Below are positions 2,369 to 63,391 of a stretch of 64,000 bases of DNA, in pieces. How positions within the stretch are numbered: position 1 is the first letter of the stretch; each line of letters starts with the position of its first letter. Position numbers and translations under genes: made by a program. The notes under the pieces are model-generated. The model had not been told where the DNA came from. It did no database searches and saw nothing but the letters and a program-made list of their open reading frames with translations. Origin of the DNA: a virus (Duplodnaviria; Heunggongvirae; Uroviricota; Caudoviricetes); IMG/VR virus record IMGVR_UViG_2778261638_000005, positions 1 through 64,000 of that record. The stretch is one strand, 5' to 3'.

Positions 2369-2444
2369 TTTACAAAACGTGCTGGATAGCAAACAAATTA
2401 TTTGATACTGTATATTCATACAGTTATTGCATGGAGAAGATAAG

Positions 2445-2702
2445 ATGCAGCAGTATCACTATCCACTGGAAGACGGATTTACCGAAAGGGTTCACACGCC
2501 GGGAGGCGTCAGATCACTGGTGGAGGGATCGCACTTGATGAAATTACTCCGGGATCTCGATAAAGATGGATTCAATGTCGATGGCCCACTTGCCGAACTG
2601 ACTGCACTGATTAACTACGTAACCAGCTCACAGATGTCTATGCGGGATCTGCAAACACATCTCGACTATTGTGCCGAACAATTACGAAAACAAATCCGGT
2701 AA
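2445..2702 (+). CDS. Hypothetical small protein (85 aa from ATG; frame opens at TTG 2427), oriented opposite to the flanking virion genes
   Basis: ORF with GGAGAAG RBS about 8 nt upstream of ATG 2445; followed by a GAAA-tetraloop hairpin; no family recognised. Confidence 0.4.
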   Translation: MQQYHYPLEDGFTERVHTPGGVRSLVEGSHLMKLLRDLDKDGFNVDGPLAELTALINYVTSSQMSMRDLQTHLDYCAEQLRKQIR

Positions 2703-18882: not shown

Positions 18883-18972
18883 ATCAATGACTCCGTACGC
18901 AATTAAATTATTACCAATTTAACCACATATGATTTATTTATCGTAGTCGGTTGACATTTAACGCACGAATTA

Positions 18973-18987
18973 TTACCTTTCAGGTAA
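18973..18987. promoter_or_regulatory. Palindrome TTACCTTTCAGGTAA, second copy of the regulatory cassette (upstream of portal-region genes)
   Basis: Identical 15-mer to 2354..2368; nearby CATATGTGGTTAAATTGGTAA element at 18911..18931. Confidence 0.5.
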
Positions 18988-19309: not shown

Positions 19310-19386
19310 GTGGCATTAGCTCAGTCGGACAGAGCAACCGCCTTCTAAGCGGTTGGTCGCAGGTTCGAATCCTGCATGCCACGCCA
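19310..19386 (+). tRNA. tRNA-Arg (anticodon UCU), phage-encoded
   Basis: Cloverleaf by eye: acceptor GTGGCAT/ATGCCAC, D-arm GCTCAGTCGGACAGAGC, anticodon arm ACCGC-CTTCTAA-GCGGT, T-arm GCAGG-TTCGAATC-CTGC, 3' GCCA. Confidence 0.85.
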
Positions 19387-19548
19387 GAATCACGCCTAAG
19401 GACCGTGATGCCAGAAGTTCCAGTGCTTGGCGGTGATGGTTTCCCTTGAAGGACTATCACCGCACTTTTTACAGCAGGACGCCATTGCGATGACTTCATG
19501 CTGTAAACCCGTACAGCCACGGAAGGAAGAACTCATTGCTTCCAGTTC

Positions 19549-19583: not shown

Positions 19584-19940
19584 ATGAACGACCAGCAAAT
19601 CGAAAAAGAAATCGTTGAGAAAGGCAAAACGGCACCGCGAGTTACGCCTCAATATATCGAAAGCATCATTCTTGAAGAGCATTTCTTTACTGCTTATGAC
19701 GGCATTCGTGCCGCCAATATGGGCGTTGGCGATTCATGGACAGCGCATAACTCTACAGACCTCCTGACTTTCTGCGTACTGGTGCTGAAGAATGGCTTCA
19801 CCGTCACCGGAGAGAGTGCCTGTGCAAGCCAGGAAAACTTTGATGCAGAAATTGGTCGGAAGATTGCCCGGCAGAATGCTGTAAACAAAATCTGGATGCT
19901 CGAAGGTTACTTGCTGAAGCAGAAGCTAAGCGAGCAATAA
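19584..19940 (+). CDS. Gp49-like (N4 gp49 / Sf6 gene 66 family-like) protein, 118 aa
   Basis: Sequence resembles the small prophage protein family common in enterobacterial prophages (recollection); AAGGTGAG RBS; opposite strand to flanking genes. Confidence 0.5.
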   Translation: MNDQQIEKEIVEKGKTAPRVTPQYIESIILEEHFFTAYDGIRAANMGVGDSWTAHNSTDLLTFCVLVLKNGFTVTGESACASQENFDAEIGRKIARQNAVNKIWMLEGYLLKQKLSEQ

Positions 19941-21506: not shown

Positions 21507-22099
21507 TGATTACCATCCTGACGTTCTTTGAGTCGCTTCCTGGCTGCTGCTATGCGATCAGCAATTGTCACATTCACATTAACATCCAGACGTTCTTTGA
21601 ACGCGTTGACATCAACATGCTTACCAATCAGCTCAAGGTTCTTCACCTTGTCAGGCCATTTAATTTTTTTGAGGATTGTCTCTATCGAATCCTCGTTCAT
21701 GTTCATGATGGTCGATGACAGATCAAAGCCACTAAGCGTAGTGCGCCAAATTTTCGGCCACTCACGGATTGGTTTAAGGCTCCCATCGTCGTTGAGGATG
21801 TCGATCACGTCCATCTGGTCGATCTCCACCAGGCGCATGAGAACGTAATCAGCACTGACGCGCATTCGTTTGTTGCGCTCCTCCATCAACTCGGCAATCC
21901 GTTTTTGAATGCGTTCATCGCGCATCATGACACTGGCTTTAACTGCCGCTGTATTTGGGGAGAATCCTGCGTTAATCGCTGCCTGAGTCTGGTTTTCAGG
22001 CGTTTTGATGTATGACTGGCAATAAGCCTCCTGCATTGCTGTTAGTGGCTTAAATTGCGTTGATTTGCGTTTATAGGTTTTAGGTTCAGCAGGCATCAT
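21503..22099 (-). CDS. Terminase small subunit (about 198 aa; start set at MMPAEPK)
   Basis: Precedes and overlaps large subunit; upstream part of the long ORF contains a terminator hairpin, so the internal ATG is preferred. Confidence 0.6.
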   Translation of the reverse strand: MMPAEPKTYKRKSTQFKPLTAMQEAYCQSYIKTPENQTQAAINAGFSPNTAAVKASVMMRDERIQKRIAELMEERNKRMRVSADYVLMRLVEIDQMDVIDILNDDGSLKPIREWPKIWRTTLSGFDLSSTIMNMNEDSIETILKKIKWPDKVKNLELIGKHVDVNAFKERLDVNVNVTIADRIAAARKRLKERQDGNQ

Positions 22100-22150
22100 A
22101 ACCACCGTGGTAATAGTTACCGTTGTGGTAATAGTATCATGCAAAATAAA

Positions 22151-22168
22151 GCCGCCATAGTTGGCGGC
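22151..22168 (-). terminator. Hairpin GCCGCCA-N4-TGGCGGC + UUUAUUUU (minus strand) upstream of terminase operon
   Basis: 7-bp stem and U-tract when read on the minus strand. Confidence 0.5.
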
Positions 22169-22217: not shown

Positions 22218-22556
22218 TCACACTATTAATTTCGTTTCATGCCAGCCTTTAGTCACCCAGCATTGCGAGTCACCATTACACGGGCATGAATTAACTGGAA
22301 CTCTCTCGCCGCACTTACCGCAACGTTTTCTGCTGATCGATTTTATACGCCCGCGCACGCGTGCATCATCCTGGCGGATCAGTAACGCTATATACTCACC
22401 AAATTCGTAAGGCGCACGCCCGGGGCGACGCGTGGCACAGTTACGCTCCAGCATTTCAATTTCCTGAGCATCAAGCACAATTTCCAGCTTACGCACACCA
22501 GATGCAGCTTGTCTGGCTCTCTGAGCGGCTTTGCGCTCTGCTGATGATTTAGCCAT
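22218..22556 (-). CDS. Hypothetical protein with C-terminal Cys-rich zinc-ribbon-like motif (112 aa)
   Basis: CGKCG...CPCNGDSQC motif; basic N-terminus. Confidence 0.4.
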   Translation of the reverse strand: MAKSSAERKAAQRARQAASGVRKLEIVLDAQEIEMLERNCATRRPGRAPYEFGEYIALLIRQDDARVRGRIKSISRKRCGKCGERVPVNSCPCNGDSQCWVTKGWHETKLIV

Positions 22557-24537: not shown

Positions 24538-25154
24538 TGGTTGCCTCCTTTGCGAAGCTGGGCGGCGATATCTTCGAGAACGCCATCAGAGAATGAACGG
24601 TCAAAATCGCCTTCCGGCGCATTAGCCATAAACTCAGTAGAGGTAAGAATCATCCGGGCAATATCAGCGGCGTTCTTCGCAGTATCATCAATAAAACCAG
24701 CTTCCCAGGCAGCCAGCATTCTGTTCGCCACAAAGTAAGCGCCCTCCTTGCGTGCTTCAGTCTTCACTTCAGCCAAGAAAGCGTCGGTGGCTGGGGTTTT
24801 TATTTCGTTAAGTGCATCACTGAATCCACCTCTCTCCATACCTAGCTCTGCTTCGTAATCGGCATCGAATGCAGCGTCTTTGCAGAACTTCTTCAGCTTT
24901 GCATTCTCCGCTGCCAGCGCCGAAAACTTCTCGTGTGCCAACTTAACAGCTGCATCAGCCTGCTTAATTGACTCAATCGCTCTCTGGTGGTCTTCGGCCA
25001 GCGCATTAGCACGCACCAGTTGCACTTCCAATTGCGTTGCCAAATTGCTGATCAGCTTTGCCACACTACGCATATCAACGGCCCCACATTCTGCTTTCAG
25101 TTCCGAAGCCATCTCATGCCCGGCGGAAACTAACCCTTTGATATTACTTTCCAT
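24534..25154 (-). CDS. Ea22-like/coiled-coil phage protein (206 aa)
   Basis: Coiled-coil protein coupled to the downstream Ea22-like gene. Confidence 0.4.
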   Translation of the reverse strand: MESNIKGLVSAGHEMASELKAECGAVDMRSVAKLISNLATQLEVQLVRANALAEDHQRAIESIKQADAAVKLAHEKFSALAAENAKLKKFCKDAAFDADYEAELGMERGGFSDALNEIKTPATDAFLAEVKTEARKEGAYFVANRMLAAWEAGFIDDTAKNAADIARMILTSTEFMANAPEGDFDRSFSDGVLEDIAAQLRKGGNQ

Positions 25155-25215
25155 CTTTACCCTCGCTTATCCACATAACTTATTGATTACATTGATAACT
25201 AAAAAGATCGTCGAT

Positions 25216-25560
25216 TCAGAACTCTTCGATATTCCAGCCGCCACCTGCTTTCTTTGGCTTAACCGTTACCCCGATGATTCGGAACGGATACTGATCTGCG
25301 GCGACTTTGGTTTTCACCCTGGCGTCGTCGGTCCAGAAACCTTTCACTTCATGCAGTTCCATCTCACCAGTGGCGAGCATCACAGCGAAATCTGGCGTAT
25401 AGAACGTGTTGTCAGCCAGCCGCAGCTTGATACCCTCGAACCGATACCAGGCGATTTCCCCTGCACGTTTACGCTGCTCAAGGTGCTGGCAATACGCAGA
25501 TTCTGTTTTGTTCATCTGGCCTGTTTTGAGTCGACCAAGAGCCTGTATCTGCTTTCTCAT
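25216..25560 (-). CDS. DUF1064-like phage protein (114 aa)
   Basis: Sequence resembles the DUF1064 family common in lambdoid nin regions (recollection). Confidence 0.5.
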   Translation of the reverse strand: MRKQIQALGRLKTGQMNKTESAYCQHLEQRKRAGEIAWYRFEGIKLRLADNTFYTPDFAVMLATGEMELHEVKGFWTDDARVKTKVAADQYPFRIIGVTVKPKKAGGGWNIEEF

Positions 25561-25563
25561 GAT

Positions 25564-25640
25564 TTACCCCTGAGGTAATTAAAAACCACATAAGACACGA
25601 AATCAATAGATTTTAGAATATTTCATTACCCAGAAGGTAA
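25564..25640. promoter_or_regulatory. Third copy of regulatory cassette: palindromes TTACCCCTGAGGTAA (25564..25578) and TTACCCAGAAGGTAA (25626..25640) flanking a TTGATT-17-TTTAAT promoter-like element
   Basis: Minus-strand reading: TTGATT, 17 nt, TTTAAT, then the palindrome overlapping the leader/RBS of the DUF1064-like gene. Confidence 0.5.
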
Positions 25641-25785
25641 TTATTGAGGCGTAAAAAAATGCGCTATCGCGCTGGTATTACTTGATAAATCCTGCCGCCT
25701 TTCCCCGCCTGTATTCCTCCATCAGCCACTGCGCCGGTGTTATTCCCCCCAGGGTGGCGGCGTTAGGCATGCACTAAAGCGCGCA

Positions 25786-34789: not shown

Positions 34790-36269
34790 TAATCACCTCA
34801 ATACTGACACCACCGGGAACAAACAACGGGTTGCTGATACCGTTCCTGCGGGCCAGCCGTTGCCAGTTCCGGCTGTTTCCTGTGTAACGGTACAGAGCCA
34901 CCATTGCAGGCATCGTCTCCGGCAGGCGGTGCGTTTCACTGCCCGCCAGTTGCAGCCCGCGTTTTTCCAGGTCGGCAACAACCAGCAGACGCAGTTGCGT
35001 AAGCTGAACGCTGTCTGTCGAAAAGCCCTGCTCAGATGCCGTCAGAATGACGGTATCCAGCGCTGCCCCCAGCATGGTGGCTGTTTTTCCGATATCGGAC
35101 ACACTTTCAAATACCGGGGGCGTGGCTGTACCACTGTCTGAAAAGGATACCTGTGAAAAGCCGCCGTCCGGGGTTATGGCAGTTAACTGTAACTGTCCCT
35201 GTGTGACGGTAGCAGATGTGCTGCTGGCCCCGCTGGCTGTGCCGGTTGTGGTGGACGGAGCATCCAGTACAGGTGCACGGGCGGCATTATCCATCCGGCG
35301 ACTGAAATCCAGTGCCGCAGTCAGTGCCTGGCTTGCTGCCTCCGCCCGGTATGTCTGCGCCGCTGCCAGCATGACGTAGTTCAGTGTGGCAATATTTTTT
35401 TCTGCAACCGGACTGTTGTACGAGGTTGTGATTGTCCCCTGTCTGCCTGTGGTGGCGGCATGGCGACGTTCGAATCGCTGCGCCAGACGGTTCCAGGTGG
35501 AAAATGCTGTCCGGGTATCGCATAACGATGAAACGCCGGACAGCGCCCCCATCAGCGAGGAGGCCAGCATGGCAGGCTGGTTAATCAGGCTGGTCACAGA
35601 GCCTTTCATCGCAGAAAGCGATCCCATCAGACCGCTGACAGTCTGCGTAACCCCCAGATTGTCCACCGCATCACTGATATCATCGATGACACCGGTTACA
35701 GCTTCCATCACGGCGGTTGCCGCCGCAGTGCCATCTTTTACGGTCTGCCAGACAGAGGACAGCGTATCTCCCAGAGAACCGGTTACAGCAACGGCCTGTG
35801 CCGGTACGGCTGCACTGGTGTCTGTCTCTGAGTCCGGGGCAGTATCCTGCAACGACGGATAAACGGTAACGGTGAACGCGTAATAATTCAGTTCATCCGC
35901 TTTAGTGCGGCATTCCCATGAATCCACCATGACGTCCACAGTGCCGAAATCAGGATGTACCAGCTCACCGCTACCCGGAGCATCAAGAGCATCCATCAGC
36001 GCACCCGCTTCATCTCTGGCTGTTTCTGCGTTGCTGTTCAGAATGCAGGCGCTGAATGTACGGGAGCGAAGCTTTTTCCCCAGGTCATTGACGCCGCCGG
36101 TATCACGTAACGGGTACTCGCGTTTAACCAGGCGACGTCCGCCAGCCTGTTTTTGCTCCTCGATGACGAGAAACGGCACGTTACGAAACGTGCCTTTGCC
36201 GGTTGTTTTCTTACCACCGCTGATTTTATCCCGGACAGCATTAACGGCATTTAAAGCATCTTCAAACAT
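34782..36269 (-). CDS. DNA circularisation protein N-like (Mu gp43-like), 495 aa
   Basis: Position after tape measure; Ala/Thr-rich middle typical of the family. Confidence 0.65.
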
Positions 36270-62672: not shown

Positions 62673-63391
62673 ACCTCTCTATAGCACCCGAAACTTCGCC
62701 CTGGTGGATGGTAAACGTCTCTCCCTGTTTCCGGAGGCGTACTCATGGGTTCTGGCTTTGCCTGTATGCTGATCACCGGATCGGGTATCTGCTGTCCGGA
62801 AGCCACCTTTTTCGCCCAATCATCGAGCAGCCTGCGCGCGTGTTTCTCAACCTCAATCTCGCTAAGCTGGCGCTGATACATTGCACGGCGGGTATCACAT
62901 ACGACCCAGTACATAACCGGATGCCGCCACGGGAATCTTTCGGGACCACCAGGATATAAACTTTTTTCCTTGCTGTACCGGTGAAACTCCGTCATCACAT
63001 CGTCAATGGTGACGCCAAGAACCATCTTGCTGTCTTTGCACCACTTGATGAATTGCCCTGGCGACGGCCAGAACGGAGAATCACTGGCGCGGGCGTGGCG
63101 CATACCAGCAGAAACCTGTTCACGGGTTCGGATCCCCCCTTCAGCAAACGCAGCAATCCACTGCTGTTTTGCAGCAACTTCCTGCTCTGGCGTCTTCAGG
63201 TTGGTTACCACTGCCGCCGGAAACAGTTGTTTCAACTGTTTGAAAAGGGCATCAACAAGCCTCTCTGCTGACATGTTCACTACGTTGTCATTGTTGGTGT
63301 ACTGATGCTCATAACCTGACATGCGAGAAAGGGCCTCTCCGTCACGGTTTTGTATTGCGGTAAAAACGTTGTTCACAAGAAATCCTCCCAT
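62609..63391 (-). CDS. Lambda P-like replication protein (helicase loader); 3'-terminal about 25 codons derive from the Mu-like end
   Basis: VSAGMRHARASDSPFWPSPGQFIKWCKD aligns with lambda P VNAGMRVARRQNRPFLPSPGQFVAWCRE (recollection); reading frame runs across the inferred insertion junction. Confidence 0.7.
   Translation of the reverse strand: MGGFLVNNVFTAIQNRDGEALSRMSGYEHQYTNNDNVVNMSAERLVDALFKQLKQLFPAAVVTNLKTPEQEVAAKQQWIAAFAEGGIRTREQVSAGMRHARASDSPFWPSPGQFIKWCKDSKMVLGVTIDDVMTEFHRYSKEKSLYPGGPERFPWRHPVMYWVVCDTRRAMYQRQLSEIEVEKHARRLLDDWAKKVASGQQIPDPVISIQAKPEPMSTPPETGRDVYHPPGRSFGCYREVNHLILLKNPGGKWIKRDLMG

Follow-up and report, generated by a model that had tools for sequence, protein, structure and literature searches.

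A candidate Rep-controlled cassette with paired palindromic operators ahead of the post-replication operon of an epsilon15-type prophage

The window, that is, the whole stretch of 64,000 nucleotides (64 kb) that was analysed, combines two prophages. Its left 25.8 kb is, as judged from the sequence, a podovirus prophage of the epsilon15/phiV10/SPC32H type (Uetakevirus), whose portal protein shows 99% identity to Uetakevirus-type E. coli phages and about 80% to Salmonella phage SPC32N. A Mu-like transposable prophage is inserted in its replication gene P. An uninterrupted relative, found in E. coli WP3-S18-ESBL-09 and referred to below as L001, is 99.9% identical to the window over positions 25100-25769 and shares its gene order; it adjoins guaA and encodes capsid staple and cement proteins of the epsilon15 type. 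The stretch 25100-25769 itself is present in 531 of 5426 complete E. coli genomes, about one in ten. Between the end of P and the next gene lies a short regulatory cassette, and the features of this region, in the order in which they are read on the minus strand, are the following.

62684-63391, minus strand: 5′ part of gene P (Pfam Phage_lambda_P, E 1.6e-56; alignment to intact P)
25775-62683, no strand: Mu-like transposable prophage of 36.9 kb (mom, com, gin ... transposase, ner, repressor) that interrupts gene P
25678-25774, minus strand: 3′ fragment of P (lambda-P-type), its last 32 codons including the stop (alignment to intact P in L001)
25678-25680, minus strand: stop codon of P, its position conserved among 12 cassettes
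25653-25672, minus strand: hairpin GCGC-N4-GCGC plus seven T, invariant in 12 cassettes, probable weak intrinsic terminator after P
25626-25640, no strand: putative distal operator TTACCCAGAAGGTAA, exact TTACC-N5-GGTAA match, about -69 to -55 from the predicted start site
25601-25606, minus strand: -35 hexamer TTGATT, with a TATTGA core invariant in the 12-cassette alignment
25584-25600, minus strand: spacer of 17 nt, variable in sequence among the 12 cassettes
25578-25583, minus strand: -10-like hexamer TTTAAT (TTTAAT or TTAAAT in the cassettes), A/T-rich and weak, at 17-nt spacing from the -35
25564-25578, no strand: putative proximal operator TTACCCCTGAGGTAA, exact TTACC-N5-GGTAA match, spanning about -7 to +8
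25558-25560, minus strand: start codon of the DUF1064 gene, which in the cassettes lies 1-5 nt past the operator
25216-25560, minus strand: DUF1064 gene (Pfam PF06356, E 3.4e-7; ORF list), first of the operon that the cassette is predicted to drive

The cassette thus runs from a weak hairpin through the distal operator, the -35, 17 nt and the -10 to a proximal operator lying over the predicted start site and the ribosome binding site (RBS), and the operon behind it extends from the DUF1064 gene through an Ead/Ea22-like gene and small genes as far as the terminase region. An earlier sequence-only reading of this DNA had drawn attention to palindromes at 25564..25578 and 25626..25640, and both are exact matches to the motif at these coordinates. 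It had also let the proximal palindrome overlap the leader and RBS of the DUF1064-like gene, in agreement with the Shine-Dalgarno-like GGGG (25567-25571, plus strand) that we find inside the palindrome and with the 3 nt that separate its end from the ATG (25560). The TTTAAT -10 and the proximal operator share one base (the last T of the former, the first base of the latter), so that the operator covers the predicted start site as well as the RBS.

The termini of the Mu-like prophage (25775 and 62683) are common to independent E. coli insertions in ydcV/patD, glpT and ydcO. The cassette region had been described as the immediate flank of this insertion, and the element does abut it, with its end at 25775 by comparison with the independent insertions and not at about 25769 as had been supposed. 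The insertion point is 97 nt upstream of the end of the P stop codon. A 4-bp direct repeat, GCAC, flanks the element (25771-25774 and 62684-62687), and the frame arithmetic of the split gene (97 + 708 - 4 = 801) agrees with a 4-bp duplication. The element starts with TAAAGCGCGC and ends with CTCTCTATA, giving TA...TA ends, and carries repeated ATTTGATAC motifs near both of them; Mu itself differs in having TG...CA ends and a 5-bp target duplication. The junction between Mu-like DNA and P was absent from the complete E. coli genomes of the collection.

Positions 25678-25774 are the coding 3′ end of P, a gene whose homologs carry the annotation "replication protein P" in 490 records. The 5′ part of P now reads 25 codons into Mu-like DNA. 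Because the insertion split P, the host prophage is probably replication-defective. The proposal that the insertion had cut the genes off from their original upstream context is borne out in part: P is split and the cro-O-P operon has been shifted 36.9 kb away, but an identical cassette is present in uninterrupted relatives (99.9% identity in L001). A comparison with uninterrupted prophages had been put forward as a check, and there the arrangement of terminator, operator, promoter and operator is the same. The DUF1064 operon therefore always had a (predicted) promoter of its own, and its regulatory context is unchanged. Upstream of the cassette, the mom gene now points towards it, and the hairpin at 25653-25672 lies in between.

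In an unbiased census of palindromes of the 5+N+5 form, TTACC-N5-GGTAA ranked first in the window and in 11 relatives. Five exact matches are present in the 64-kb window against 0.05 expected, a number reached in none of 100 shuffles, and when one mismatch is allowed there are six against 0.9 expected. All of them lie below position 25641, that is, within the non-Mu part, while the Mu-like part (36.9 kb) contains no match at up to one mismatch. Outside the cassette described above, the sites in the window are:

22099-22131, no strand: tandem operators TAACCACCGTGGTAA and TTACCGTTGTGGTAA (from 22099 and 22117), 18 bp apart; epsilon15 homolog 12-27 annotated as repressor site
18973-18987, no strand: operator upstream of the gp3/portal operon, motif match; epsilon15 homolog 2931-2947 annotated as repressor site
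2354-2368, no strand: operator in the gap between the divergent genes for tailspike and ant, motif match; epsilon15 homolog 19895-19911 annotated as repressor site

The cassette after P had been counted as a third copy of an element with two palindromes. The recurrence is real, with the motif found again at the portal, tailspike and terminase genes, but the make-up of the copies differs: the portal (18973) and tailspike (2354) cassettes each hold one full palindrome plus a GGTAAT half-site, and the terminase site is a tandem pair. The tandem operators abut the start codon of the small terminase and are preceded by a strong terminator (22151-22168; -15.8 kcal/mol, z -4.4). No consensus promoter was found by eye in the portal, tailspike and terminase cassettes. 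The first two have a plausible -10 without a good -35, and the small-terminase site lacks a consensus -35/-10 at workable spacing and offers no room for a consensus promoter.

A block of the form ATGTGGTT(T/A)3A occurs upstream of the proximal operator or the GGTAAT half-site at 2290-2320, 18895-18925 and 25579-25597. This ATGTGGTT...GGTAAT arrangement is common to the tailspike, portal and nin cassettes (the last being the one after P), is conserved in epsilon15 and Enterobacter phage Tyrion, and is lacking in most early-left cassettes; it may reflect shared descent of the cassettes or be a binding site for a second factor. In the same part of the prophage, a 112-aa gene just upstream of the small-terminase site (22218-22556) is a homolog of epsilon15 gp49, annotated as "transcriptional regulator", and a tRNA-Arg gene (anticodon TCT, 19310-19386) is situated in the gap between portal and terminase. 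A second LexA-like box, CTGTAAACCCGTACAG (19501-19516), was noticed ahead of a "Gp49 family" gene on the plus strand (19584-19940), at a distance of 68 nt.

With respect to the promoter, the sequence-only reading had proposed TTGATT-17-TTTAAT on the minus strand, and these hexamers are present between the palindromes (25606-25601 and 25583-25578). The element reaches a score of 9/12, and it is omitted by a consensus scanner because its -10 lacks the near-universal A at position 2. The scanner returned one promoter-like site against 1.4 in shuffled sequences, and its sole call was on the plus strand. This call, AAGACA-16-TAGAAT (25592-25619), was rejected as a promoter, its count being at chance level and the site not being conserved in relatives. 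A scanner count about equal to that of the shuffles, together with a sole call on the other strand, would fit the view that palindromes and promoter-like hexamers alike are accidents of an AT-rich intergenic region. That view is contradicted by the five motif matches against 0.05 expected, and by the conservation of position, spacing and arms across about 10 genera and 156 listed cassettes; enrichment and conservation together refute a chance origin, to which we assign practically no probability.

This conservation was assessed in an alignment (A3) of the cassettes of 12 phages from about 10 genera, in which the operator arms, TATTGA and the hairpin are invariant. The proximal operator combines invariant arms with a centre that is variable but purine-rich, as suits an RBS, and the distal operator combines invariant arms with a free centre. 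When viral contigs were scanned for paired motifs, at least 119 of them contained such a pair, most of these being about 40 kb long. Among the matches listed there are 156 distinct viral-contig cassettes, in which the two operators are spaced by 62 bp in 130 cases, 63 bp in 24 and 61 bp in two, and TTGA occurs at the fixed -35 offset in 150 of the 156. The early-left (PL-type) cassettes have an identical geometry with near-consensus hexamers (TTGACA-17-GATTAT or AATTAT) and a strong promoter. From the conservation of the -35 and its spacing and from this early-left geometry, we infer that TTGATT-17-TTTAAT is a real, moderately weak sigma-70 promoter, with its predicted start site inside the proximal operator. 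The hairpin at 25653-25672 folds at -8.4 kcal/mol (z -2.1); its 4-bp stem falls under the scanner's threshold of five pairs and never varies, so that its function in RNA is putative. We take the hairpin for a probable weak intrinsic terminator after P.

Depending on the phage, the cassette is followed by a DUF1064 gene or by one for a RuvC-like resolvase, and because of this exchange it can be regarded as a self-contained module. Examples of the RuvC-like Holliday-junction resolvase behind the cassette are found at 35987-36451 of L002 and 37345-37809 of L003, the counterpart in the window being DUF1064 at 25216-25560; this suggests that the two genes are functional alternatives behind the same cassette. 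A variant occurs in a Pseudescherichia vulneris prophage (L007, 5343-5375), in which the operators are 18 bp apart and the promoter segment between them is absent, an arrangement resembling that of the operators at the terminase gene.

In L001, three 15-mer sites are found in the intergenic region between rep, a gene for a 194-aa HTH repressor, and a divergent cro-like gene, and two more, 62 bp apart, directly follow the repressor gene, in front of the early-left operon. In epsilon15, Tyrion and SPC32H, too, this 15-mer occupies the rep/cro and early-left regions. At up to one mismatch, 15 matches were counted in epsilon15, 14 in Tyrion and 18 in SPC32H, where about 0.6 would be expected (epsilon15 and SPC32H). 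In the viral loci with two operator pairs among the matches listed, a Rep homolog lies between the pairs in 49 out of 49.

These sites also bear on the idea that the palindromes act in RNA, the proximal one being a leader hairpin that masks the RBS of the DUF1064 gene. The proximal palindrome does contain the Shine-Dalgarno-like GGGG, ends 3 nt from the ATG and can form a 6-bp stem. Its predicted fold reaches only -4.2 kcal/mol (z -0.19), with 73 of 200 shuffles folding equally well, and a transcript begun at the predicted start site, which falls within the palindrome, would be without the 5′ arm. Identical palindromes are moreover found where there is no leader, ahead of -35 elements and between rep and cro, and the arms never co-vary but are simply invariant. 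A search against Rfam gave no match. A role in RNA is in our view very improbable, and a role in DNA, as operators, is the reading followed below.

As to the protein that would bind them, the Rep of L001 matches the SPC32H Repressor (PDB 5d50_A, E 4e-42). The rep gene of the prophage studied here would lie outside the 64-kb window, past its right end, as the window stops inside an O-like gene. Reps with only 43% overall identity keep the sequence NLVNRW, presumed to form the recognition helix of Rep, within the DNA-binding domain at the N-terminus, and this invariance matches that of the operator half-site. A genome scan for Rep relatives retrieved 13 loci, of which the enterobacterial ones all share one operator motif; for distant relatives (Hydrogenovibrio and Paraburkholderia, N-terminal domain only) the census found no enriched palindrome. 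Further support comes from the RefSeq record of epsilon15 (NC_004775.2), where features labelled "protein_bind / repressor / lysogeny" mark the nin, terminase, portal, tailspike and early-left positions:

35906-35922 (epsilon15): repressor site between the replication gene and the next gene, homologous to the distal operator of the window cassette
12-27 (epsilon15): repressor site before the small terminase
2931-2947 (epsilon15): repressor site before the portal operon
19895-19911 (epsilon15): repressor site before the tailspike
early-left region (epsilon15): three repressor sites

The repressor-operator geometry seen by the sequence-only reading is thus upheld by the rep/cro and early-left 15-mers of the relatives, by the epsilon15 annotation and by the presence of Rep in all of the listed two-pair loci.

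Nevertheless, Rep has a neighbour that might be the main user of the sites. CI and Cro act on common operators in switches of the lambda type, and the motif discussed here fills the rep/cro intergenic region, where Rep and Cro should both act. The palindromes after P could then serve mainly the Cro-like lytic repressor encoded by a 76-aa gene beside rep in the relatives, turning the promoter down late in lytic growth and leaving Rep a minor role. The Cro-like protein had no Pfam match. Such a role leaves binding by Rep possible; both proteins probably bind, which would add to the Rep model and not replace it. The epsilon15 record names the sites repressor sites, and the 62-bp pairing suits a tetrameric Rep, as described for SPC32H (PMC9638917, PMC9986798), better than a small Cro. 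We consider it unlikely that Cro is the principal ligand here. The reading we prefer, with considerable confidence on the strength of motif, position and conservation, is that both palindromes are putative operators of the prophage's own Rep, of the SPC32H/epsilon15 type, and bracket the predicted sigma-70 promoter of the post-replication operon.

The window also contains the elements expected to relieve such repression:

2408-2423, plus strand: LexA box CTGTATATTCATACAG, a perfect match to the LexA-box pattern
2445-2702, plus strand: antirepressor gene ant, 85 aa (PDB 5d50_E "Anti-repressor protein", E 8.5e-46)

The encoded Ant has about 85% identity to that of SPC32H, and its gene is divergent from the tailspike gene. 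For SPC32H, Rep has been described as a tetramer on palindromic DNA that is dismantled by a tetrameric Ant (PMC9638917), its tetramerisation fold has been named by its describers for DNA looping (PMC9986798), and the synthesis of Ant has been placed after the self-cleavage of LexA upon SOS induction (PMC7380047, citing Kim and Ryu 2013). By analogy, in the lysogen Rep would occupy both operators and block RNA polymerase at the DUF1064 promoter. The two operators would face the same side of the helix, given that 62 bp correspond to about six helical turns, and as the SPC32H Rep is a tetramer, one Rep tetramer may bridge the pair. After DNA damage, LexA would be cleaved and ant (2445-2702) expressed; Ant would then disassemble Rep and allow the DUF1064 operon to be transcribed from its own promoter, while the hairpin and T-run after P probably halt most of the read-through from the early-right operon.

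A wider scheme can be formulated from the distribution of the sites, and we offer it tentatively, as a possibility that we would not favour at present. A single tetrameric Rep, controlled by the antirepressor, would exert direct control over all operons, including those for post-replication, packaging, head and tailspike functions, through stereotyped cassettes of terminator, operator and promoter, with or without a second operator, in place of the lambdoid antitermination cascade. In that case the unusual "trans" Rep tetramer would have the strictly conserved 62-bp pairs as its natural substrate, joining the two sites of a pair and wrapping the promoter. The 62-bp pairing constitutes a testable prediction for tetrameric Rep at natural promoters. 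For annotation, the heads of most transcription units of the prophage can be located from the 15-mer alone, and the Mu-like insertion can be recorded as having inactivated P and not the regulation of the downstream operon.

The regulatory system as such is already known, the Rep/Ant/LexA switch having been characterised in SPC32H and the operators annotated in epsilon15, and since the latter phage has such sites in its existing annotation, the finding is correct but ordinary. Epsilon15 (NC_004775.2) has the same 15-mer at the same genomic positions and the same 62-bp pair (35907/35969). It differs in having a RuvC-like resolvase downstream, compared with DUF1064 here, and in a Rep that is 43% identical to the Rep of the E. 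coli relative, and of its pair the record shows the distal site alone. In SPC32H (PDB 5D50, 5D4Z), the source of the Rep-Ant-LexA switch, the same cassette precedes a DUF1064 homolog, and a single central base distinguishes its proximal operator from that of the window; of the components of the switch, the window has the Ant homolog behind a LexA box and its near-identical uninterrupted relative has the Rep homolog.

The likeness to OL/OR of lambda consists in palindromic operators on a promoter core beside cI-like and cro-like genes, and in nin-type genes that follow a lambda-P-type gene. The means of inactivation are different, the lambda repressor undergoing RecA-stimulated cleavage and the repressor of the present type being inactivated by an antirepressor (as described in PMC7380047). 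The operators differ as well, being triplets of 17-mers in lambda and 15 bp long, in pairs 62 bp apart, in the prophage studied here. In addition, the nin region of lambda depends on antitermination by N, whereas the post-replication operon described here has its own putative repressor-controlled promoter behind a probable terminator.

Many dispersed sites, including sites before late or structural operons, are used by the C1 repressor of P1 and by the repressor of mycobacteriophages L5/L1, and these sites are asymmetric. What those systems (PMC1934351 for L1) share with the present one is a single repressor with scattered sites; their proteins are unrelated to Rep and their sites lack symmetry, whereas the sites found here are symmetric and lie mostly at the heads of operons, just after terminators.
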